DNA of 10,277 nucleotides from IMG/VR virus record IMGVR_UViG_2671180454_000011, one strand, 5' to 3'. Positions 548-10,277 of the stretch are shown in pieces. The position numbers and the translations under genes are program-made. This DNA is from a virus. Taxonomy: Duplodnaviria > Heunggongvirae > Uroviricota > Caudoviricetes. Position 1 is the stretch's first letter, and each line of letters opens with the position of its first letter. The notes beneath the pieces were generated by a model. That model saw only the letters and a list, made by a program, of their open reading frames with translations. It was not told where the DNA came from and made no database searches.

Positions 548-702
548 ATCAAGGCTTTTCCTTTTGCTGTTAATACTCGCGTAATCGCTCAGGCTTCTGA
601 GTTCCTTTATCAGTCCATCTTCTAATTAATTCACTCCCTCTGGGGTTGGTCACTATACGTGGTCAGCCCTTTCTTTGTTTTATTTTTAAAAAGGAAAATA
701 TA

Positions 703-1656
703 ATGGAAAAATTCCACATGTTTGATGACCGTATTTATCAGATGACTAATGGCGTTAAAGCTGCCGACCGTATTATTTACACTGTCATGTTGAATGAACA
801 AAAGTTTTATCACGATAAGGGGCAATATTATACCCCTTCATATGCTCATCTTGGTCAGTATGCTGGAATCACAAGAACATCCGTGATTGCATGTATGAAA
901 CAACTTGAGGCACATGGTTTAATCAAGAAAACTAACGTTGCAAGCAATCAGTGTGTTATTAAAGTTTATTCACTTGATGAAGTACCGGAGGTTTTAACAG
1001 AGCTTACAGCTAAGGAAGCCAGAAAGGCAAAGCTGGAGTCTAAAGTTACTCAGTCAGTCAAGAAAGATGACCCACTGAGTCAAAATTCTTTACCCACTGA
1101 GTCAAAATTTTTTACTCAGTCAGTCAAAATCTTTGACACGTATAATAACAGTAATAACAAGAAAGAACTTATTAATAACAATAAAGAAGATGACTTTGAA
1201 GAAGAATATTTTAAGAAGGGAGCTTCGCTCTGTGATTCACATGAATGTGATTCTCTTGGTATTGAAGAGGCTATTAAAGAGACTGTTAAAACATCTGACT
1301 TAGATGACCTTGATAGTGAAGCTGCTAAAGAGGTCGTTAAAAAGGAAGATAAAATCTCTGATGTGATTGCTAGTAGTGACCATAAAAACACACAGTGCCC
1401 CGCCACTGATGATGAATTACCGGATGTTGACCTTGATGATGAAGAAGACCCTGAAAAGGAATTGAAACGTGAACAGCGTAAAGCAGAAATTAAAGAAAGA
1501 TTCAGAAATGCGAAGCTAAAGAACAAGGTTAGTGACCTCGATGACTTTGATGATAGTGACGATGATTTTACTTTTACACCAAAAAAGAAAACTCACACCG
1601 AGCCAAAGAAAGAAAAAGTTAAAGTCAGACGTGTTTATGGTGGAGGAATGTTTTAA
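703..1656 (+). CDS. Replication-initiator-like protein: N-terminal winged-helix/HTH-like domain (…YAHLGQYAGITRTSVIACMKQLEAHGLIKK…) followed by ~200 aa of acidic low-complexity sequence; iterons lie inside the gene
   Basis: ORF-track ORF 646..1656 (TTG start); ATG at 703 preferred because AAAGGAAAA lies 6-14 nt upstream. The N-terminal ~100 aa resemble wHTH DNA-binding domains of phage/plasmid initiators (lambda O-like or replisome-organizer-like) from memory; the rest is D/E/K-rich (DLDDLDSE, PDVDLDDEED, SDLDDFDDSDDDF). Functional call is inference from domain look and the internal iterons. Confidence 0.75.
   Translation: MEKFHMFDDRIYQMTNGVKAADRIIYTVMLNEQKFYHDKGQYYTPSYAHLGQYAGITRTSVIACMKQLEAHGLIKKTNVASNQCVIKVYSLDEVPEVLTELTAKEARKAKLESKVTQSVKKDDPLSQNSLPTESKFFTQSVKIFDTYNNSNNKKELINNNKEDDFEEEYFKKGASLCDSHECDSLGIEEAIKETVKTSDLDDLDSEAAKEVVKKEDKISDVIASSDHKNTQCPATDDELPDVDLDDEEDPEKELKREQRKAEIKERFRNAKLKNKVSDLDDFDDSDDDFTFTPKKKTHTEPKKEKVKVRRVYGGGMF
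1046..1133. repeat. Four tandem 22-bp iterons (A-B-B-A): TTACTCAGTCAGTCAAGAAAGA / TGACCCACTGAGTCAAAATTCT / TTACCCACTGAGTCAAAATTTT / TTACTCAGTCAGTCAAAATCTT
   Basis: Hexamer AGTCAA occurs at 1056, 1078, 1100, 1122 (exact 22-bp spacing, counted by hand). Units 1 and 4 are near-identical, as are units 2 and 3. Located within the rep-like ORF. Confidence 0.75.
1134..1200. other. AT-rich tract directly 3' of the iterons with three copies of TAATAACA (1143, 1152, 1173); candidate DNA-unwinding element of an intragenic origin
   Basis: Read directly; position relative to the iterons mirrors the ori-lambda layout (iterons followed by AT-rich region inside gene O). Confidence 0.4.
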
Positions 1657-2787: not shown

Positions 2788-3002
2788 TGAAAACTATCAC
2801 AGTACAACTTCAGACTAATAAAGCATTTCGTTATTTTGAAAACTTGCTTGAGTTATACGAAGGATGGGGAAGTATCCACGGCAAAGATGATATCTATCTT
2901 CACTTGTCAGCCCCTAACTATTCTCTGAAGACTCCGGTTAAGCAAAGCTGGTTAAAAGACTACGGTCACCAGATGGGGCTATTAGTCTCAGACTTGAGCT
3001 AA
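2787..3002 (+). CDS. Hypothetical 71-aa protein, start overlapping the upstream stop (TGATG); alternative start at ATG 2775
   Basis: ORF track 2775..3002; ATG 2787 overlaps the upstream TGA by 1 nt and has a G-rich SD-like stretch upstream; ATG 2775 lacks one. Confidence 0.6.
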   Translation: MKTITVQLQTNKAFRYFENLLELYEGWGSIHGKDDIYLHLSAPNYSLKTPVKQSWLKDYGHQMGLLVSDLS

Positions 3003-3044
3003 AAACAGCAAAACATATCTCTCAGGCTTTACCAGACGCACCAG

Positions 3045-3119
3045 AAACGTTTTTAAGCCCCTAATCAGGGTAACTTAGGGAATCGCCTTAAGTGGTCTAA
3101 AAAAGGGGTTAAAACGTCT
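3045..3119. promoter_or_regulatory. Nested inverted repeats in the 146-bp intergenic gap: AAACGTTTTTAAGCCCC (3045-3061) vs GGGGTTAAAACGT (3105-3117), enclosing hairpin CCCTAA-N10-TTAGGG (3058-3080)
   Basis: Read directly; AAACGTTT (3045-3052) is itself a perfect 8-bp palindrome. No classical GC stem plus U-run terminator is evident. Confidence 0.3.
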
Positions 3120-3148
3120 TAGAATGCGATACAGGAAGGATTTTAAAA

Positions 3149-3454
3149 ATGAATTACCCAATGCAAATTATGGTTGACCAAGAAACCATGAATTGGTTGA
3201 TTGACCTGAACAGGTCGGGCTTTAATATCTATTTCATGCATTGTTTTGAAGCGTCAACGTATATTGACAAGCATATAATCAACGAAATTAAACTTGGTGA
3301 CTATGTTCACAAGCTGGAAGTAACAGACCCATACAATAAGCGCTTTATCATTGAAGAGTGCAATCGACTTGATTTAAGCCCTGAGCAATTATTGAAGCTG
3401 AATGTATTCTTGACCTATCAGAATGAATTAAACCCTTACAGCGAGGTGATGTAA
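3149..3454 (+). CDS. Hypothetical 101-aa protein
   Basis: ORF track; ATG 3149 preceded by AGGAAGG. Confidence 0.7.
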   Translation: MNYPMQIMVDQETMNWLIDLNRSGFNIYFMHCFEASTYIDKHIINEIKLGDYVHKLEVTDPYNKRFIIEECNRLDLSPEQLLKLNVFLTYQNELNPYSEVM

Positions 3455-3531
3455 TGACACTCGTTATTCTCTGGATGACTTTAGGGTTATTTGTTGGTTG
3501 CTGGGTAGGTAATACGGTAAATAAGAATTGA
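3454..3531 (+). CDS. 25-aa hydrophobic micro-ORF (MTLVILWMTLGLFVGCWVGNTVNKN), translationally coupled (TAATG) to the 101-aa gene
   Basis: Not in the ORF track (too short). ATG 3454-3456 overlaps the upstream TAA stop; GAGGTG SD 5-10 nt upstream; product is one predicted TM helix. Manual translation to TGA 3529-3531. Confidence 0.4.
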   Translation: MTLVILWMTLGLFVGCWVGNTVNKN

Positions 3532-3650
3532 TGTTACCAATCTGTTAAAAAGCTGTTGACAAATAACCTTAAGCATGAGATGATGGTAATAGGGAAGAGC
3601 AACTCTTCCTGAATTAAACTATTAATCATTCTACATCAATGATAGTTATT

Positions 3651-3704
3651 CTGAAAGGTGCAATGCTTTTCGCTACATGACCTTTCAGGTTAGTCTGAGA
3701 GGTC
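3651..3704 (+). promoter_or_regulatory. Mutually exclusive stem-loops: CTGAAAGGT (3651-3659) or CTGAGAGGTC (3695-3704) can each pair with GACCTTTCAG (3679-3688); candidate RNA switch/attenuator-like element
   Basis: Read directly: a 9-bp perfect stem with 20-nt loop versus a 10-bp stem (1 mismatch) with 6-nt loop, sharing the central arm. Lies in a 398-bp non-coding region downstream of a TTGACA hexamer (3556-3561) and of hairpin GGAAGAG-caa-CTCTTCC (3593-3609). Confidence 0.35.
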
Positions 3705-3733
3705 ATCTCGAAAAGTACTCTTGTTCATTCGTT

Positions 3734-3755
3734 TGAATCCTTTTTGAATCCTTTA
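3734..3755. repeat. Tandem direct repeat TGAATCCTTTT / TGAATCCTTTA
   Basis: Read directly: two adjacent 11-bp units, 10 of 11 identical. Confidence 0.5.
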
Positions 3756-3784
3756 GATGTTTTAATTTCTTCACCTTATGAATG

Positions 3785-3810
3785 GCCCTTTATAAGAAAT
3801 TATCTAGGGC
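3785..3810. promoter_or_regulatory. Imperfect palindrome GCCCT-TTATAAGAAATTATCT-AGGGC about 120 bp upstream of the 236-aa gene; candidate operator
   Basis: Read directly: 5-bp perfect outer arms with partial inner symmetry (TATAA/TTAT). Confidence 0.25.
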
Positions 3811-3929
3811 TATTCAGCTTTTAAAAAGCATACTTGGCAAACCGCCTTTTAAGTCTCTTCTAAGTTTAGATAGGCTGTCAGGTGTGCTTTTTAAAAACTG
3901 AAACACTTCCGCTTAGAAGAGGAAAAGCA

Positions 3930-4640
3930 ATGACAAATGATATTTACATTAATGGCAAAGTGATTGATAGCTTCAGTGACTGGTCGCCACAGACTGAACA
4001 TCCAGCTATCACTATTCAGCGTAAAGAGCATGACAAGCGTATTGAGCTTGAGCAATCGCTAAAGATGTCACCAAAAACAACCATCTTTGTGTCTCCTGAG
4101 CCTCAAGAGATGCCTGATATTTGCAAGAGTGAAGCATTACTTGAGCTTGAAAAGAAATATTACCAACTGCTGAAAGAACAGCGCCTTAGATTAGATGACG
4201 CTTACAGCAAAGTTACCTTGATGCAATCAGCTATTGAGCCGTCAGAATTTGAGATTCAGGATGAATTGTCACAGAAACCATTTGTCTATTACCAATACGA
4301 AGATAATGATGGTTTTGGTACTTTTCAAGAAAACGTCGCAGCCGTGATTAGTAGTCTTCCTGCTGGACATCGAATTGTGAAGATGGTTAAGGCATCAAGA
4401 GGTGCTGGTCAGTTTATTTACATGACTAATAAGAGCGATGAAGAACTCGCTGAAATTGCTAGACAGAACATCTTGGCATCACGTAACAAGCAACTTGATA
4501 ATGTTAAGTTGTATCTCTCAAGAGAGCTTCAGGCTATGAAAGAGCTTGTGAAAGAATATGAAGATGCTAAGAAGATTGCTATGCAGGCTGATATTGAGCA
4601 GCTTACGAAGATTTCTAGCAAATATGCAAAGGCTATTTAA
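3930..4640 (+). CDS. Hypothetical 236-aa protein with a helical, charged (coiled-coil-like) C-terminal third
   Basis: ORF track 3882..4640 (GTG start); ATG 3930 preferred (AGAAGAGGA SD 7 nt upstream). No family recognised. Confidence 0.75.
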   Translation: MTNDIYINGKVIDSFSDWSPQTEHPAITIQRKEHDKRIELEQSLKMSPKTTIFVSPEPQEMPDICKSEALLELEKKYYQLLKEQRLRLDDAYSKVTLMQSAIEPSEFEIQDELSQKPFVYYQYEDNDGFGTFQENVAAVISSLPAGHRIVKMVKASRGAGQFIYMTNKSDEELAEIARQNILASRNKQLDNVKLYLSRELQAMKELVKEYEDAKKIAMQADIEQLTKISSKYAKAI

Positions 4641-4664
4641 TTAATAATTAAAAGGTGGTGGTGA

Positions 4665-4871
4665 ATGATTGATTTAACAGAACGCTATGAGCTTATTAAA
4701 GCAATTAGTGAACGATTGAAAGAACAACCCAACAAACCAAAACGAATCAAATCATTCACCTCCTCTAAGCAAAAGAATAGAATCAGGAAAATAGCTAAGT
4801 GGTGTCTTGATAAATTACCAAGTGATTGTCAGATTGTTGGTGAAGATGGTAATTATTATCTGGTTAGGTAA
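4665..4871 (+). CDS. Hypothetical 68-aa basic protein
   Basis: ORF track; AGGTGG SD 8 nt upstream of ATG 4665. Confidence 0.6.
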   Translation: MIDLTERYELIKAISERLKEQPNKPKRIKSFTSSKQKNRIRKIAKWCLDKLPSDCQIVGEDGNYYLVR

Positions 4872-4969: not shown

Positions 4970-7150
4970 ATGAGCAAATTCACAGTTGATAGTTTTATCG
5001 TTGAACTTAGTTTCAGTGAAAACGTTATTAAGGGCTTGCAAAGAGTTGAAAAGGCAGCTTTGCAGTCAGCACAAAGAATTGAACGCAATTTGAATAGAGC
5101 GTTTAAGGTCGATACCAAGCAACTTGACAGCAATCTGACAAGTTCTTTAGGGCAGCTTGAAAGGAAGTTTAATAAGACCTTTGACAAGATTGAGCAGAGA
5201 GCAAGAAGCACAAAAGCATTTCAGTTTGCCACCAGATTTAATGACACTGTTAATCCTCCAAAACAATCAAGGCAACCACGAATTAGCGGAAACAGAGCAA
5301 TCACAGCAGCGCATAGCGTGAATATGTCTAAGCTTGGTGATATTAATCCGCTGATGGCTAAAATGTTTAAAGCACAGTATTACAGCTTAAGCGGTAAGGC
5401 TGGTAATATTGGAAGTGAAAAGTTTAACGCTGAACTTGCAAAATTAAATCAATCTCTTCGTGAAACGTTGAATAAACTCAGGTCACAGACAAAGACCGCC
5501 AGCATTAACAATACAAGCGACGCATTTAATAATCTTGCAAGCAATGCGATTAAATTATCTGGTGCATTTTACTCTGTGATGGGTGCTCTTAACGCTTACA
5601 AGGCCATTATGAATGCAGGTCTTAAACGAGATTCCGCACAGAGAGCCGCTAAGTTTGTACTTGGTGATAAAGCATCTGAAGCTGAGGTATTTATTCGAAA
5701 TTTAGCAGACAAGACAGGTCTTAATATCTCTGAAGGGCTATCAAGCTACGCTAAGTTTGCAGCAGGTGCTCAGGGTTCTATGTCACAGGAACAGACACAG
5801 GAGCTATTTGGTAATGCAACGGCTATGAGTCGCTTAATGGGGCTTTCTAACGATGAGCTAAACGGCATTTTGAGAGCATTTGAGCAGATGGCGAGCAAGG
5901 GCAAGATTCAGGCTGAGGAATTACGTGGGCAGTTAGGTGACCGTATGGCTGGTGCATTTAAGCTATTCGCTGAAGCATTGGGTATGACTGCTACAGAGCT
6001 TGATGCAGCCATGAAAAACGGGAAGGTACTTTCCGCTGATACTCTCCCTAAAGTCGCTAAACAGATGGGCTTGATGATTGATAAAGCGGGTGGCTGGGCT
6101 GAAGTCACTAAGAGCACTCAGACAGCTTTAGGTAAGTTAGCAAACAATTGGGATGATACGATGGTGAAAATCTTCTCAGGTTCACAGGATGAGCTAAACG
6201 GCTTCTTATCCAGCCTGAGTAACCTGCTTAGTGAAATGGGGATGAGTTCTTCTATCGCTGGTGATGCTATCGGTGGACTTATCGACATGCTTAAAGCTGG
6301 TGTAGATGATATTCGCGTATTCAATAACACCATTGAAGGCTGGATTTTACAGACTAAGAAGTTCTATTACAGCCTTGATGACACTAAACGAAAACTACTT
6401 GATGAAGTCGGTGATGGTTTTATCAACTTCGTCAAAGGTCTTGCTATAGCGTTATCTGCAAAGACGCTATTCAGTGCTACTACAGGGGTTATGAACCTGA
6501 CAAGAGCAATCACAACGTTAGGTACAAGAGCTAATCAGGTGGCTGGTCAGGTAGCTACTGGTAAAGGTGGTGGAAAACTGAAAGGTGTAGCTGGTGGTGT
6601 AGGTAGTGCTCTTGCAATTGGTTATGCTGATGACGGTTATGAAACAGCGTTAGCATTAGCTTCAATGATTCCACAAATCAGAGGCGTCACTCTTGGTTTA
6701 TATGCATTGAAGAAAGCACTGGATTTTATGAATCAGGAAGTAGTCAAAAACGCTAATATGCATCCGTCTGGGGTAGGTGTGGGTAGTGACTTTAATCCCG
6801 TGTATTCTGGTGACCCTAATAAACCGAATATGATTAACGAAGGATGGAGTAGAATTTTTAGTTCAATGGGTGAATTGTTTAACAATGCCACAATGAATAT
6901 TGCAAGATTCAATCATCCAGAGTTAAACAACATTAAGCAAGATTCAGCATTAACGAGTGCAGATATTCAGGGTCTGAGGGATGAAATTAGTGCTTTGAGT
7001 AAGCGTATTCAGGAGCCAGTGAAAGTTTCACTTGGTGGTCAAGTTGTCGTTCGACCAGATGAACCATCTTTCTTTACTTTCAATCAATCAGCTAATGACC
7101 AGTTCACGCAGGATATGCTCTTAAGTTCAAGCTATCCAGAGGAAGAATGA
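4970..7150 (+). CDS. Tail tape-measure-domain protein (726 aa)
   Basis: ORF track; AAGAGGTGA SD upstream of ATG 4970. Contains the conserved tape-measure core …FVLGDKASEAEVFIRNLADKTGL…ASKGKIQAEELRGQLGDRMAGAFKLFAEALGMTATELDAAMKNGKVLSADTLPKVAKQMG… recognised from memory, a coiled-coil-rich N-terminus and a Gly-rich hydrophobic middle (GKGGGKLKGVAGGVGSALAIGYADDGYE). Role as a true tail ruler is uncertain because no other tail or head genes are in the window. Confidence 0.8.
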   Translation: MSKFTVDSFIVELSFSENVIKGLQRVEKAALQSAQRIERNLNRAFKVDTKQLDSNLTSSLGQLERKFNKTFDKIEQRARSTKAFQFATRFNDTVNPPKQSRQPRISGNRAITAAHSVNMSKLGDINPLMAKMFKAQYYSLSGKAGNIGSEKFNAELAKLNQSLRETLNKLRSQTKTASINNTSDAFNNLASNAIKLSGAFYSVMGALNAYKAIMNAGLKRDSAQRAAKFVLGDKASEAEVFIRNLADKTGLNISEGLSSYAKFAAGAQGSMSQEQTQELFGNATAMSRLMGLSNDELNGILRAFEQMASKGKIQAEELRGQLGDRMAGAFKLFAEALGMTATELDAAMKNGKVLSADTLPKVAKQMGLMIDKAGGWAEVTKSTQTALGKLANNWDDTMVKIFSGSQDELNGFLSSLSNLLSEMGMSSSIAGDAIGGLIDMLKAGVDDIRVFNNTIEGWILQTKKFYYSLDDTKRKLLDEVGDGFINFVKGLAIALSAKTLFSATTGVMNLTRAITTLGTRANQVAGQVATGKGGGKLKGVAGGVGSALAIGYADDGYETALALASMIPQIRGVTLGLYALKKALDFMNQEVVKNANMHPSGVGVGSDFNPVYSGDPNKPNMINEGWSRIFSSMGELFNNATMNIARFNHPELNNIKQDSALTSADIQGLRDEISALSKRIQEPVKVSLGGQVVVRPDEPSFFTFNQSANDQFTQDMLLSSSYPEEE

Positions 7151-7157
7151 TTTAACG

Positions 7158-7998
<841 letters not shown>

Positions 7999-8020
7999 TG
8001 TGCAAAATGGCATCTGAATC

Positions 8021-8125
8021 GATCGCAGTTTGGCATTCGAATCGATCATGATTTGGCATCCATCTCCGATCACAGTTTGGCATCACAATCGATCACGATT
8101 TGGCATACTTCCGATCATTGATTGG
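8021..8125. repeat. Five direct repeats of GATC-N4-TTTGGCAT (last copy degenerate) with 22-24 bp spacing at the IS left end; candidate multiple transposase-binding sites
   Basis: GATC at 8021, 8044, 8068, 8091, 8113; TTTGGCAT at 8029, 8052, 8076, 8099; a sixth partial copy AAATGGCAT at 8005. Counted by hand. Multiple subterminal repeats are a known hallmark of IS21-family ends. Confidence 0.7.
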
Positions 8126-8201
8126 AATTCGCCAGTCACTCCGGGAATTAACTCTTTTCACCACAGTCTCCATTGCCGTGTTTAAACCAGTGGAGACGTC
8201 A

Positions 8202-9767
8202 ATGTCCAAAAAGAGAAAATCCAGGAGCACTATGGAAACTTGTTTTAAGATCCTTCAGCTCAAGTTCGATAAGAAGCTGACTAACCGTTGTATCGGACTG
8301 ACGTTACACATCAGCGCCTCAACCGTTTTTGAGGTTCTTGCCCGCTTCAAAGCCTCTTCTCTGTCATGGCCATTACCTGCGGATATATCCCATGACACGC
8401 TGGAGAAACTCATTTTCCCGCCCAAAGACACCTCTGCGTCAGAGCTTGTTATGCCTGACATGCTGTACTTCGATACGGAAATGAGAAAACCTGGCGTGAC
8501 GCGCCAACTGTTGTGGATGGAATACAAGGCACAGGCGGGTGACAAAGCGATGGGATACTCACACTTCTGCCGTTGCTACCGGAAGTGGAAAAAAACGCGA
8601 CGCCTCTCCATGCGACAGGAGCATCGTGCTGGCGAAAAGCTCTTTATCGACTTCTGTGGTCCTACGGTCCCTGTTATTAATCCGGACACCGGAGAGATAC
8701 GCCGCGTGGCAATCTTCGTGGCTGTAATGGGGGCGTCCAACTATACCTATGTTGAAGCGTGCGAAGGTCAGGACATGATGTCATGGTTAAATGCCCACAG
8801 CCGTTGCCTGACCTTCCTGGGCGGCGTACCGAAGCTGCTCATCCCCGATAACCTCAGAAGCGCAGTGAAAAAAGCCGATCGCTATGAGCCTGTCATCAAC
8901 GACAGTTATCAGGCGCTGGCTGAGCACTATGGCACGGTTATTATCCCGGCCCGCCCGCGCAAACCTAAAGATAAACCAAAAGCAGAAAACGGCGTCCTCA
9001 TCGTCGAGCGATGGCTTCTTGCCCGCATCCGTAATGAAACCTTCCACACGCTCAGGGCGCTGAATGCACGCCTTCGGGAGTTGCTGACGGACATGAATAA
9101 CCGACCAATGAAGGGATACGGTAATCAAACCCGCGCAGAACGCTTCCGCATGCTGGATGCACCAGCACTCTCTCCGCTGCCTCTGGAGCCTTATGAATAC
9201 ACGGAATACAAAGCCGTGAAGGTTGGCCCTGACTACCACGTTGAATATGCCCGTCACTGGTACTCCGTTCCACACGAACTGGTCGGTCAGCGTCTGTCAC
9301 TGAAGGTGGGGCAGTCGGTGGTACAGCTCTGGCACAAGGGGCAGTGTGTGGCGCAACATCCGCGCAGCACACATGAATATAAACACACAACCAATCCGCT
9401 TCACATGCCAGAACGCCACCGGCGGCATGGGACATGGACACCGGAACGCCTTATCGAGCAGGGAAACCGTACAGGTCCGTCCACAGGCCGGGTGGTTGAA
9501 TCCATGCTGAAAGCCAAACCCCATCCGGAGCTGGCTTACCGTGCAGTCCTGGGTCTGCTGGCACTTCAGAAAAAATACGGCCCGGAACGGCTGGAAAAGG
9601 CCTGTTACGTTGCCCTGCACTATAACGCCCCGGACAGACGCTTTATCGACAATCTGCTGCGTCATCATCGGGATAACGTTGAGCTTCCGTTATCCCGCCA
9701 GGGCGAACAACATCCGGCATATGCTTCAGAGCATGAAAACCTGCGTGGTCCTGGCTACTACCACTGA
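8202..9767 (+). CDS. istA: IS21-family transposase IstA (N-terminal HTH, DDE catalytic core)
   Basis: ORF track 8100..9767 (TTG start); ATG 8202 preferred (GGAGA SD 5 nt upstream). N-terminal HTH-like …LTNRCIGLTLHISASTVFEVL…, then a DDE-type core ending in the …PRKPKDKPKAENGV… block typical of IS21-family IstA, from memory. Confidence 0.85.
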   Translation: MSKKRKSRSTMETCFKILQLKFDKKLTNRCIGLTLHISASTVFEVLARFKASSLSWPLPADISHDTLEKLIFPPKDTSASELVMPDMLYFDTEMRKPGVTRQLLWMEYKAQAGDKAMGYSHFCRCYRKWKKTRRLSMRQEHRAGEKLFIDFCGPTVPVINPDTGEIRRVAIFVAVMGASNYTYVEACEGQDMMSWLNAHSRCLTFLGGVPKLLIPDNLRSAVKKADRYEPVINDSYQALAEHYGTVIIPARPRKPKDKPKAENGVLIVERWLLARIRNETFHTLRALNARLRELLTDMNNRPMKGYGNQTRAERFRMLDAPALSPLPLEPYEYTEYKAVKVGPDYHVEYARHWYSVPHELVGQRLSLKVGQSVVQLWHKGQCVAQHPRSTHEYKHTTNPLHMPERHRRHGTWTPERLIEQGNRTGPSTGRVVESMLKAKPHPELAYRAVLGLLALQKKYGPERLEKACYVALHYNAPDRRFIDNLLRHHRDNVELPLSRQGEQHPAYASEHENLRGPGYYH

Positions 9768-9783
9768 CAGAAGGAACAACCGT

Positions 9784-10277
9784 ATGAGTGATAATCTGTT
9801 AAACAAACTGACCCAACTGAAACTCCCGGCGATGGCCGGGAGCCTGATACGGCAACGGGAAACGCCTCAGACTTACGACGAACTGTCGTTCGAGGAAAGG
9901 CTGACACTGCTGGTTGATGACGAGCTTCTGAGCAGAGAAAACAGTCGTGTGGCACGGTTGAGAAAAAATGCCTGCCTGAAATATCAGGCAACACCGGAAG
10001 GGCTGCGTTATCCGGCCTCAAGAGGTCTGCGGGCTGAACAGATGAGGGAACTGCTGAACGGCCACTACATAATCCACAGGAAAAACCTACTGATAACCGG
10101 TCCGACAGGATGCGGTAAGAGCTGGATAGCCAATGCGCTGGGCGAACAGGCATGTCGACAGAAATACAGCGTCCGGTACTGTAGAACCGGGCGATTACTG
10201 GAACAGTTGGCTCAGGGACGTGTTGATGGCAGTTGGCTGAAATATCTGAAACAGTTGCAAAAAATACAGGTTCTAAT
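9784..10277 (+). CDS. istB: IS21-family helper ATPase IstB, 5' part (continues beyond window)
   Basis: Manual translation from ATG 9784 (AAGGA SD 9 nt upstream): MSDNLLNKLTQLKLPAMAGS…NLLITGPTGCGKSWIANALGEQA… with a Walker A motif (GPTGCGKS); open to the window end. Not in the ORF track because no stop is reached. Confidence 0.85.
   Translation, partial: MSDNLLNKLTQLKLPAMAGSLIRQRETPQTYDELSFEERLTLLVDDELLSRENSRVARLRKNACLKYQATPEGLRYPASRGLRAEQMRELLNGHYIIHRKNLLITGPTGCGKSWIANALGEQACRQKYSVRYCRTGRLLEQLAQGRVDGSWLKYLKQLQKIQVL

Follow-up and report, generated by a model that had tools for sequence, protein, structure and literature searches.

A probable structured regulatory RNA region between the replication and tail-gene halves of an enterobacterial island related to Felix-O1-like phages

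The viral record IMGVR_UViG_2671180454_000011, a stretch of 10,277 nucleotides (hereafter the window, to which all positions refer), holds an enterobacterial chromosomal island that carries phage-type tail genes. Between the replication and tail-gene halves of the island lies a gap at 3532-3929, bounded exactly on the left by a conserved 25-codon open reading frame (ORF) that ends at 3531 and on the right by the ORF of a 236-amino-acid (aa) protein that starts at 3930. No ORF of at least 40 aa occurs in 3532-3881 on either strand, in agreement with a preliminary description of the window, made from the letters alone, that had seen no plausible ORF here. Read from left to right, all on the plus strand, the region holds an array of direct repeats overlapping a promoter, a 5′ hairpin (H1), a variable predicted hairpin (H2), an invariant block, a covarying hairpin (H3), a U-rich linker, a terminator-like hairpin (T2), a long covarying hairpin (H5) and a ribosome-binding region. 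The gap is the most conserved non-coding part of the island, and it is very probably a transcribed, selected region of structured regulatory RNA read from the plus strand. We class the element as a new, undescribed structured cis-regulatory leader outside any named family. Both functions that the preliminary description had proposed, a regulatory junction (here between two gene modules) and an undescribed non-coding RNA, are supported by a conserved promoter, plus-strand-specific structure, two covarying hairpins, terminator hairpins upstream of the next operon and the lack of an Rfam match. The two strongest features of the gap, the hairpin 3813-3839/3876-3902 and the complementarity between 3855-3864 and 3912-3921, were absent from that description.

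Relatives were collected in two ways. A blastn search found a homologue of the gap in 478 of 5426 complete E. coli genomes, eleven copies were aligned, and an exact search with the 20-mer GAAAGGTGCAATGCTTTTCG yielded 99 metagenome stretches and 13 from viral collections, giving about 120 copies overall. The 20-mer was also found once in an unrelated context, on metagenome contig SAMEA104315424__coassemble_308, with neither promoter nor H3; a collection of this size should yield about one such match by chance. Because the region is a mosaic with optional inserts and a whole-length MAFFT alignment was too gapped, its modules were analysed separately. The region is structured well beyond chance: the folding energy of RNA 3591-3945 is -112.9 kcal/mol for the plus strand (z = -8.5) and -95.5 kcal/mol for the minus strand (z = -4.9). 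Rfam 15 (4227 models), searched with the whole window on both strands at E-values up to 1, returned no family match, only five chance-level hits (to eukaryotic small nucleolar RNA and microRNA models and to a CRISPR repeat), all of them well short of the respective gathering score. At ordinary search sensitivity, 3400-4000 has no phage homology.

The TTGACA hexamer that the preliminary description had picked out at 3556-3561 forms the -35 element of a predicted sigma-70 promoter (3556-3584), with a 17-nt spacer, TG at 3576-3577 and the -10 hexamer GATGAT at 3579-3584. In a scan of 3000-4700 this was the best promoter-like site (10 of 12 matches, with a TG-extended -10), and the scan found no sigma-70-like promoter between T2 and the start codon at 3930. 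Of 121 copies, 120 have TTGACA as the -35 hexamer; the -10 region reads TG(A/G/C)CATAAT in 100 of the 121, and the weaker GATGAT form occurs in 18, including the window (TGaGATGAT). Both hexamers at a spacing of 16-18 nt, conserved in relatives, are what defines a sigma-70 promoter by sequence. Judged by spacing only, transcription is predicted to start near A3591.

Three 10-bp direct repeats separated by single nucleotides (ATGTTACCAA t CTGTTAAAAA g CTGTTGACAA, 3531-3562) precede this promoter, the third overlapping its -35 element. They match the ArcA consensus ATGTTAAAAA at 8, 9 and 7 of 10 positions. The three-repeat pattern occurs once in the window, in 0 of 200 shuffles and in all 121 copies, with a spacing of 11/11 in 100 of them and 11/10 in 21. 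A minimal ArcA-P site consists of two ATGTTAAAAA copies 11 bp apart, centre to centre, and mostly has one to three further repeats (PMC4173790). With at least two repeats at 11-bp spacing, 3531-3562 fits the sequence definition of such a site, and ArcA-P is predicted to control the promoter, most simply by repression, which is the simplest mode because the promoter is otherwise near consensus.

H1 (GGGAAGAG caa CUCUUCCU, 3592-3610) stands at the 5′ end of the predicted transcript and is part of the minimum-free-energy fold; its inner portion, GGAAGAG-caa-CTCTTCC at 3593-3609, is the tight hairpin of the preliminary description. A hairpin of 5 bp or more forms in every one of the 37 distinct variants of the segment, on stems that differ in sequence (for example GGAAGAG/CTCTTCC, AGAGAGA/TCTCTCT, GGGAG/CTCCC and GGAAA/TTTCC), and 17 copies carry an additional hairpin, GGATAG-tctt-CTATCC, 5′ of it. 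The evidence for H2 (3611-3651) consists of the single-sequence fold and inverted repeat I15. Its segment of about 40 nt is mosaic, indel-variable and unalignable across variants, has no covariation support, and is swapped in relatives for other sequences, such as (GATG)n runs or an optional 28-nt hairpin insert. Two tetranucleotide runs vary in copy number among copies, (GATG)n (n = 0-5) before the invariant block and (CATT)n (n = 1-4) after H3, at sites that correspond to 3611-3651 and 3716-3735 of the window. Also variably present among copies are two optional inserts of 27-28 nt that form hairpins, one of them GAGGATAGTCTTCTATCCGAAGTCTAT and the other containing GGTATGTTCTATACC.

The invariant block (3653-3672) is the 20-mer used for the exact search, a choice that by itself makes it invariant in the metagenome set; among the 11 E. 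coli/Escherichia copies retrieved by BLAST and protein search, 10 have it unchanged and the eleventh has one additional nucleotide. It can fold into a local hairpin (GAAAGGU/GCUUUUC) or pair through its 3′ half with 3709-3716, and as both foldings are invariant they lie outside the reach of covariation. The block has no match in enterobacterial phages, the core around it (3640-3720) has only chance matches to unrelated phages, and elsewhere in the window there is one weak match with 2 mismatches. Lacking a phage match, the block is not a copy of a helper packaging site. A conserved leader peptide starting at the AUG in the block was considered and rejected: the ORFs have 5-23 codons in differing frames, and the 1-nt insertion shifts the frame in one copy.

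H3 (AUGACCUUUCAG guuagu CUGAGAGGUCAU, 3677-3706) is a 12-bp hairpin with arms at 3677-3688 and 3695-3706 that is supported by covariation. Over 65 distinct sequences, 96.4% of the cells of its upper stem are paired and 6 of the 12 pairs show changes on both sides; the covariation score was reached by 0 of 500 shuffles, and slid controls were 35-58% paired. G·U was counted in 115 cells and A·C in 1, an excess that points to a helix in plus-strand RNA, because neither a DNA site nor an RNA of the minus strand would give it. For a candidate basal extension (3665-3672/3709-3716) there is no covariation, and one of its pairs is broken in 38 of the 65 sequences.

H3 shares an arm with the three-arm element of the preliminary description, in which GACCTTTCAG was proposed to alternate between an upstream and a downstream partner, as in an attenuator or antitermination switch. 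The arms themselves (CTGAAAGGT at 3651-3659, ACCTTTCAG at 3680-3688 and CTGAGAGGT at 3695-3703) are present, and the middle one is complementary to both of the others in the window (inverted repeats I19, 9/9, and I7, 11/12); a related alternative would have CUUUUC (3666-3671) pair with GAAAGG (3653-3658) or GAAAAG (3710-3715). The covariation analysis of homologous gaps that had been suggested as a check was run, and it shows that the downstream pairing is maintained but the upstream one is not. The upstream pairing is 82% paired, which equals the shuffle mean and is reached by 377 of 500 shuffles; its outer pairs are broken in 31-33 of the 65 sequences and one inner pair in 39, and where H3 switches to CCUAUUUAG/CUAGAUAGG the upstream arm stays CUGAAAGG. 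In addition, no U-run follows H3, which is therefore not a terminator. The idea of mutually exclusive stems thus lacks support for its upstream half, and we consider a switch of 3680-3688 between 3651-3659 and 3695-3703 very improbable.

The U-rich linker downstream of H3 contains a tandem duplication of TTTGAATCCTT at 3732-3754 (Tandem Repeats Finder: period 11, 2.1 copies, 100% match). This is the tandem repeat noticed earlier; it is real but not conserved, as two units are present in 1 of 109 copies, the window only, and the duplication is a strain-specific feature. T2 (3780-3815) is a terminator-like hairpin that appears in the fold and is built on the core GCCCU (3785-3789)/AGGGC (3806-3810), extended in the window to GAAUGGCCCU/AGGGCUAUUC. 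Its core corresponds to the palindrome of the preliminary description, which stands as a stem but in the window has no good U-tract behind it, the U-run not following the extended stem directly. The stem GCCCT...AGGGC is found in all copies with loops of 11-45 nt and, being invariant, offers no covariation evidence. At least four T follow T2 directly in 93 of 109 copies, and T/CATTCAG follows in the window and 14 others. A second canonical terminator, T1 (GCCCTAA-n7-TTAGGGC and a T-rich run), lies about 100-150 nt upstream of T2 in 69 of the 109. Termination at T2 is doubtful in the window itself. From the predicted start to T2 the distance is 183-368 nt among copies and 225 nt in the window.

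A strong constitutive-type promoter that leads straight into terminators would make little sense unless the short RNA were useful, and the layout of this one (5′ hairpin, invariant and partly single-stranded block, U-rich linker, terminator) is typical of small RNAs. The main product could be a stand-alone trans-acting small RNA, running from the promoter to T2, that regulates genes of the island or of a helper phage through base pairing, in the manner of SviR in the Vibrio PLE satellites and of CI RNA in P4 immunity, with H5 as a separate element, an explanation that is compatible with a leader. Against it stand the poor terminator in the window and the invariant block, which has no enterobacterial-phage counterpart and just the 2-mismatch one within the window. 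We hold the small RNA to be rather unlikely, if a serious possibility; its potential targets are taken up below with the phage comparisons.

The right-hand part of the gap is dominated by H5 (3813-3902), a long hairpin with arms at 3813-3839 and 3876-3902 (inverted repeat I1, 27-nt arms) and a 36-nt apical region. In 89 distinct sequences its stem of 25-27 bp has 95.2% of cells paired and changes on both sides in 14 of 25 pairs; here too the covariation score was reached by 0 of 500 shuffles, slid controls being 37-55% paired, and G·U cells number 261 against 85 for A·C. The apical loop includes the segment CCUUUUAAGUCUCUUCUAAG (3845-3864), whose final 10 nt, CUCUUCUAAG (3855-3864), constitute an anti-Shine-Dalgarno sequence: they are complementary at 10 of 10 positions (inverted repeat I14) to CUUAGAAGAG (3912-3921) in the ribosome-binding region of the 236-aa ORF (3912-3932). 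CUUAGAAGAG overlaps the Shine-Dalgarno sequence GAGG (3919-3922), which is separated from the ATG at 3930 by 7 nt.

Four sequence types of the H5 module were distinguished (A in 57 copies, B in 38, C in 13 and D in 1). The long hairpin folds in all four, and all four keep a contiguous helix of 8-13 bp between the loop and the Shine-Dalgarno region, which they build from different sequences: types A and B pair CUUCUAAG with CUUAGAAG, reaching upstream of GAGG, and types C and D pair UUCACCUC with GAGGUGAA, reaching downstream of it. Cognate duplexes have energies of -14 to -17 kcal/mol, compared with -6 to -12 across the divide between A/B and C/D and about -7 to -9 for shuffled partners. The sole variable pair of the helix is U-A or U·G and never A·C, and at the apex of H5 the ensemble leaves the anti-Shine-Dalgarno stretch 64% unpaired. 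Complementarity that is maintained while the sequences change is what would be expected of an operator that sequesters a Shine-Dalgarno sequence, as far as sequence can indicate. A second anti-Shine-Dalgarno candidate from RNAalifold, UUUCUUC (3766-3772) with GAGGAAA, was set aside, being invariant in that subset and unsupported.

From this arrangement we think it probable, with less confidence than we have in the structured RNA as such, that the gap is the cis-regulatory junction at which the early half of the island, with its replication genes, meets the late half, with its tail genes, and that a composite mechanism of termination and ribosome-binding-site occlusion silences the tail operon there. 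The strong sigma-70 promoter would fire rightward from about 3591 and would probably be repressed at low oxygen by host ArcA-P through the repeats that overlap its -35 element. The transcript would be a highly structured leader, with H1 probably stabilising its 5′ end, followed by the conserved core of invariant 20-mer and H3 and by the U-rich linker. In most members of the family, one or two intrinsic-terminator hairpins would then end most transcripts, leaving an RNA of about 180-370 nt; for the window the predicted RNA is about 225 nt and the terminator weak. Transcripts that read through would fold H5, and the anti-Shine-Dalgarno sequence in its loop would pair with the ribosome-binding site of ORF 3930. 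The late operon (ORF 3930, a 68-aa ORF, the tape-measure gene and the gene after it, in this order) would in this way be kept off at two levels, by termination and by blocked translation initiation. Candidates for its relief are antitermination, cleavage of the H5 stem by RNase III, which would detach the anti-Shine-Dalgarno sequence, and a factor of the helper phage.

Several points weigh against this account. The loop-Shine-Dalgarno helix cannot be nested with H5, and when it is forced the alternative fold reaches -27.5 kcal/mol instead of -43.3, 16 kcal/mol worse; the pairing would therefore have to be a loop-to-tail pseudoknot, worth up to -18 kcal/mol. Behind this pairing there are two truly independent sequence families, A/B and C/D, and even the contribution of A/B is weakened, because its paired motif (CTTCTAAG and the inverse) is also a repeat motif of non-coding DNA in the Ounavirinae, the Felix-O1-like phages, and a protein-binding site present twice in inverted orientation could give the appearance of RNA covariation. 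Most copies were retrieved by the exact 20-mer search, and the copies are relatives of each other, which means that the shuffle controls are not probabilities. In the window, T2 is followed not by a U-run but by TATTCAGC (UAUUCAGC), and a terminator scan makes no call there; the -10 hexamer is also weaker than in relatives. Together with the damaged state of the island, the poor T2 and this -10 suggest that the control element may be decaying in the window. Finally, what the comparison of copies shows is conservation of the promoter and terminator hairpins, plus-strand RNA structure in H1, H3 and H5 and type-specific complementarity of the loop; the start site, ArcA binding, termination and the translational effect are predictions from the sequence. 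For the loop pairing, RNA is nevertheless favoured over a DNA motif because types C and D keep it, because of the G·U pattern and because one partner is the Shine-Dalgarno sequence itself.

The H5 loop is the part of the gap that resembles phage DNA. An exact-match scan found 3845-3860 as a 16/16 inverted match in the 1.65-kb ORF-free region of the Felixounavirus garuso, with a second, 13-nt copy nearby, and the blastn matches of 3836-3880 among 50,697 phage records were mostly to Ounavirinae. The 20-mer 3845-3864 recurs at 19/20 in unannotated DNA of about 40 Ounavirinae phages (Erwinia phiEa21-4-like phages and several Salmonella, Hafnia and Enterobacter phages). The type B loop matches at 21/23 a different Ounavirinae set (Mooglevirus, Suspvirus and some Shigella phages), again in unannotated DNA; type C has no phage match, and type A resembles Kolesnikvirus-like phages and garuso. 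The E-values of the individual matches are poor, and chance is nonetheless unlikely because the matches fall in one subfamily, in its non-coding DNA and in type-specific clades. The likeness may reflect shared protein-binding sites, RNA mimicry or recombination.

The ORF-free regions of these phages (garuso 48953-50602, phiEa21-4 16472-17659) contain an array of CTTNNAAG-type repeats and a second array of 17-27 same-strand TGTTA motifs with a modal spacing of 11 bp, often beside TTGACA. Garuso has 27 same-strand TGTTA within 1650 nt, compared with 1.5 per kb elsewhere. The architecture of these TGTTA arrays is that of the three promoter repeats of the island and of ArcA-P sites, and no description of the TGTTA/CTTNNAAG arrays was found in the papers searched.

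Such resemblances raise the possibility that the conserved elements of the gap act mainly as DNA-level sites for a helper or host protein (a promoter or operator mimic, a packaging site or an origin) copied from the non-coding region of the helper, its inverted repeats being protein sites. This would account for the loop matches in two separate Ounavirinae sets, for their position in regions dense in CTTNNAAG-type and 11-bp-phased TGTTA repeats, and for the three phased TGTT(A/G) repeats at the island promoter. It does not account for the tolerance of G·U and avoidance of A·C in both H3 and H5, whose arms vary freely in sequence while complementarity is kept, nor for types C and D, which retain the loop-Shine-Dalgarno pairing without a phage match, nor for a pairing partner that is the Shine-Dalgarno sequence. 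The origin-like iterons of the island lie within its replication gene and not in the gap, and an operator role of the TGTTA repeats at the DNA level is already part of the explanation that we prefer. We regard a mainly DNA-level action as improbable.

The H5 apical loop could be the point of communication between island and helper, through RNA or through a shared recognition motif, its sequence being specific to the helper clade; we consider this unlikely. One possibility is that a helper transcript or factor acts on the H5 loop and frees the ribosome-binding site, turning on the tail genes at infection. Another is that messages of the helper are targeted in trans by an abundant RNA that bears the loop, for example in the region upstream of the garuso tape-measure gene. 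There, 15-26 nt upstream of the tape-measure start, garuso AACTTAGAAGAG is complementary to 12 nt of the island H5 loop, an observation that we treat as a lead only.

Potential targets also bear on the stand-alone small RNA. Between the leader and garuso there are six exact matches of 13 nt or longer, compared with 1.7 in dinucleotide shuffles, of which about 1 in 300 reach six. Leader 14-mers at 3631-3644, 3658-3671 and 3788-3801 are perfect complements of the garuso sense strand at 66909, 8300 and 80824, in terminase, gene 17 and gene 121, and the 14-mers complementary to the terminase and gene-17 mRNAs are among the six matches. However, other island windows of the same length have up to 5 such matches, which makes the excess weak and a lead only, and the targets are neither validated nor conserved.

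In architecture, the leader seems closest to a combination of the lambdoid pR′-tR′ switch with a hairpin that occludes a ribosome-binding site, of the kind found in the lambda N leader and adhE. In the lambdoid late switch, a constitutive pR′ produces a short 6S RNA terminated at tR′ until Q brings about antitermination ahead of the late operon. The island would share with it a strong promoter at the early/late boundary and one or two intrinsic terminators before morphogenetic genes, with a short RNA as the default and the late genes off. It differs in that no Q-like protein or Q-binding element was found, the neighbouring small ORFs having no family matches, and in that its leader is longer and more structured, with the addition of H5 and its anti-Shine-Dalgarno block and of ArcA-type repeats at the promoter. 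In the phage lambda N leader and the 5′ untranslated region of E. coli adhE, a long hairpin processed by RNase III occludes the ribosome-binding site. The near-perfect 25-27 bp stem just upstream of a Shine-Dalgarno sequence that is paired to an upstream segment resembles these cases. In the island, by contrast, the anti-Shine-Dalgarno sequence sits in the apical loop and needs a pseudoknot, RNase III cleavage is conjecture, and there is no sequence similarity.

In genomic role the nearest analogue may be SviR, an RNA of the PLE satellites of Vibrio cholerae. PLE integrates by a serine recombinase. SviR is an RNA of about 210 nt with a conserved promoter and terminator, encoded by these satellites of the lytic phage ICP1, and its promoter is activated by ICP1 infection (bioRxiv 10.1101/2022.04.08.487710). 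The island likewise would be a small serine-recombinase element tied to a lytic myovirus and would encode, in a gap without ORFs, an RNA of roughly 200 nt, with promoter and terminator conserved, and this parallel, extended to the seed regions of SviR, speaks for the stand-alone small RNA. Unlike SviR, its promoter looks like a constitutive sigma-70 promoter, the two RNAs have no sequence relationship, and no trans target is known in the island. Compensating flanking repeats in the style of SviR were looked for and rejected: the candidate pair is 3542-3555/3815-3828, and its upstream arm is the same for all H5 types.

Two further systems resemble single parts of the region. The ArcA-P-repressed promoter icdA P1 has three direct repeats (PMC4173790), and the island would match it, as judged here from the bases alone, in three 10-bp TGTTA-core repeats 11 bp apart, centre to centre, that overlap a core promoter. 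Phased TGTTA arrays are, however, far more numerous in Ounavirinae non-coding regions, and a phage-encoded protein of ArcA-like specificity may act at the TGTTA repeats. The immunity CI RNA of P4, which belongs to the C4 antisense RNA family of Rfam, is a satellite operon leader with a constitutive promoter and premature termination. The island would share RNA-based control in a satellite operon leader, but it has no Rfam match at E-values up to 1, and its three-arm complementarity, comparable to seqA/seqB/seqC, lacks covariation.

The DNA around the gap identifies the element that it would control. The right end of the window (7993-10277) is the IS21-family element ISSso4, 99.9% identical to copies on Shigella sonnei plasmids, and the protein of the plus-strand ORF 3930-4640 (236 aa) is 100% identical to a Shigella sonnei protein cluster with 161 members. 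The remainder is a chromosomal island with relatives of 70-92% identity in 502 of 5426 complete E. coli genomes (~9%), in the chromosome only; the family extends over E. coli, Shigella sonnei, Salmonella, E. albertii and E. marmotae, with sizes of about 11-14 kb. An intact E. coli copy of about 11 kb splits yecE and starts with a small serine recombinase, a Dam-type methyltransferase, a helix-turn-helix protein and several small ORFs, followed by a gap of about 0.5 kb, the 236-aa ORF, a 69-aa ORF, the tape-measure gene, a ‘baseplate’ protein and a large serine recombinase. Another copy is located between yciI and tonB; intact copies are flanked by serine recombinases and the split yecE or have this yciI/tonB site.

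In the replication half, the helix-turn-helix gene 646-1656 (plus strand) matches phage replication-initiator families. It contains an iteron array, TTACTCAGTCAGTCAA, at 1046-1134 with a 22-bp period and at least 3 copies, after which comes an A+T-rich direct repeat, TAATAACAAGAAAGAA ×2, the whole stretch being 1046-1290 on the plus strand. Iterons and A+T-rich repeat inside an initiator-like gene are the likely origin of the island, in a lambda O-type arrangement. The gap as replication origin was rejected, since this is the sole iteron array and nothing comparable occurs in 3532-3929.

Upstream of the gap, the unannotated hydrophobic 25-codon ORF MTLVILWMTLGLFVGCWVGNTVNKN (3454-3531, plus strand) overlaps with its start the stop codon of a 101-aa ORF (TAATG). 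A hydrophobic ORF, either this one of 25 aa or a different one of 21 aa, persists in 115 of 118 copies; there are 47 peptide variants, of which the common ones are each encoded by several DNA variants (synonymous variation), and the product is probably a real small membrane protein. In about 25 copies an unrelated 21-aa hydrophobic ORF, MELVIICFVLIGMIAGASIKV, takes its position. A type I toxin-antitoxin system was rejected: the predicted RNA shares its strand with the peptide ORF and lies downstream of it, and the only complementarity to this ORF, 3481-3494 with 3559-3572, lies upstream of the predicted transcription start. Neither the arginine-rich motif of an antiterminator nor a family match was found in the 101-aa ORF, and that role was rejected for it. 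The neighbouring small ORFs gave no matches in Pfam, PHROG or NCBIfam. The 236-aa protein is without a match in Pfam, PHROG, NCBIfam, Protein Data Bank (PDB) sequences or a phage tblastn search, and the ‘transposase’ label that RefSeq/NCBI attaches to it appears unfounded, there being no family match.

The tail genes link the island to Felix-O1-like phages. The tape-measure gene (4970-7150) matches Pfam TMP_3 and PHROG 4036; it and the next gene have patches of 88-93% nucleotide identity with Felixounavirus genomes and are together (4970-8051) syntenic with garuso genes 118-119 (garuso 77022-80029). Where the phage has two tape-measure chaperones, the island has the unrelated 236-aa and 68-aa ORFs. 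It is unusual for a small island to carry only these tail genes. In relatives the gene after the tape-measure is intact (257-262 aa) and followed by the large serine recombinase; in the Shigella copy the same gene (7286-8051) appears as several short ORFs and is cut by the ISSso4 insertion at 7993. The island is decaying in this strain. An island with its own tail genes may be a satellite or a tail-assembly decoy, and we infer a satellite-like or decoy element tied to Felix-O1-like (Ounavirinae) phages. No published description of a satellite of these phages, or of this island, was found in the searchable literature.

Felix-O1-like phages are used for Salmonella typing and biocontrol. The island described here is common (about 9% of complete E. 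coli genomes) and has tail genes closely related to those of these virulent phages, and the gap is the obvious switch for them. It offers three handles: a predicted oxygen-responsive (ArcA) operator, a new RNA supported by covariation, and an occluded ribosome-binding site whose loop resembles clade-specific phage DNA. The parts are of ordinary kinds, yet what they make up is a new and well-supported RNA element that stands at the point of control in a phage-related island which is common but uncharacterised. Should the switch turn out to respond when phages infect, it would reveal the way in which a lytic coliphage's satellite detects its helper, and if communication through the H5 loop is true, it would amount to RNA-level helper sensing or sabotage in a new family of satellites of virulent Felix-O1-like phages that is common in E. 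coli and Shigella. Even the ordinary reading gives enterobacterial annotation two additions, an unannotated family of cis-regulatory RNA and a gene for a small membrane peptide.

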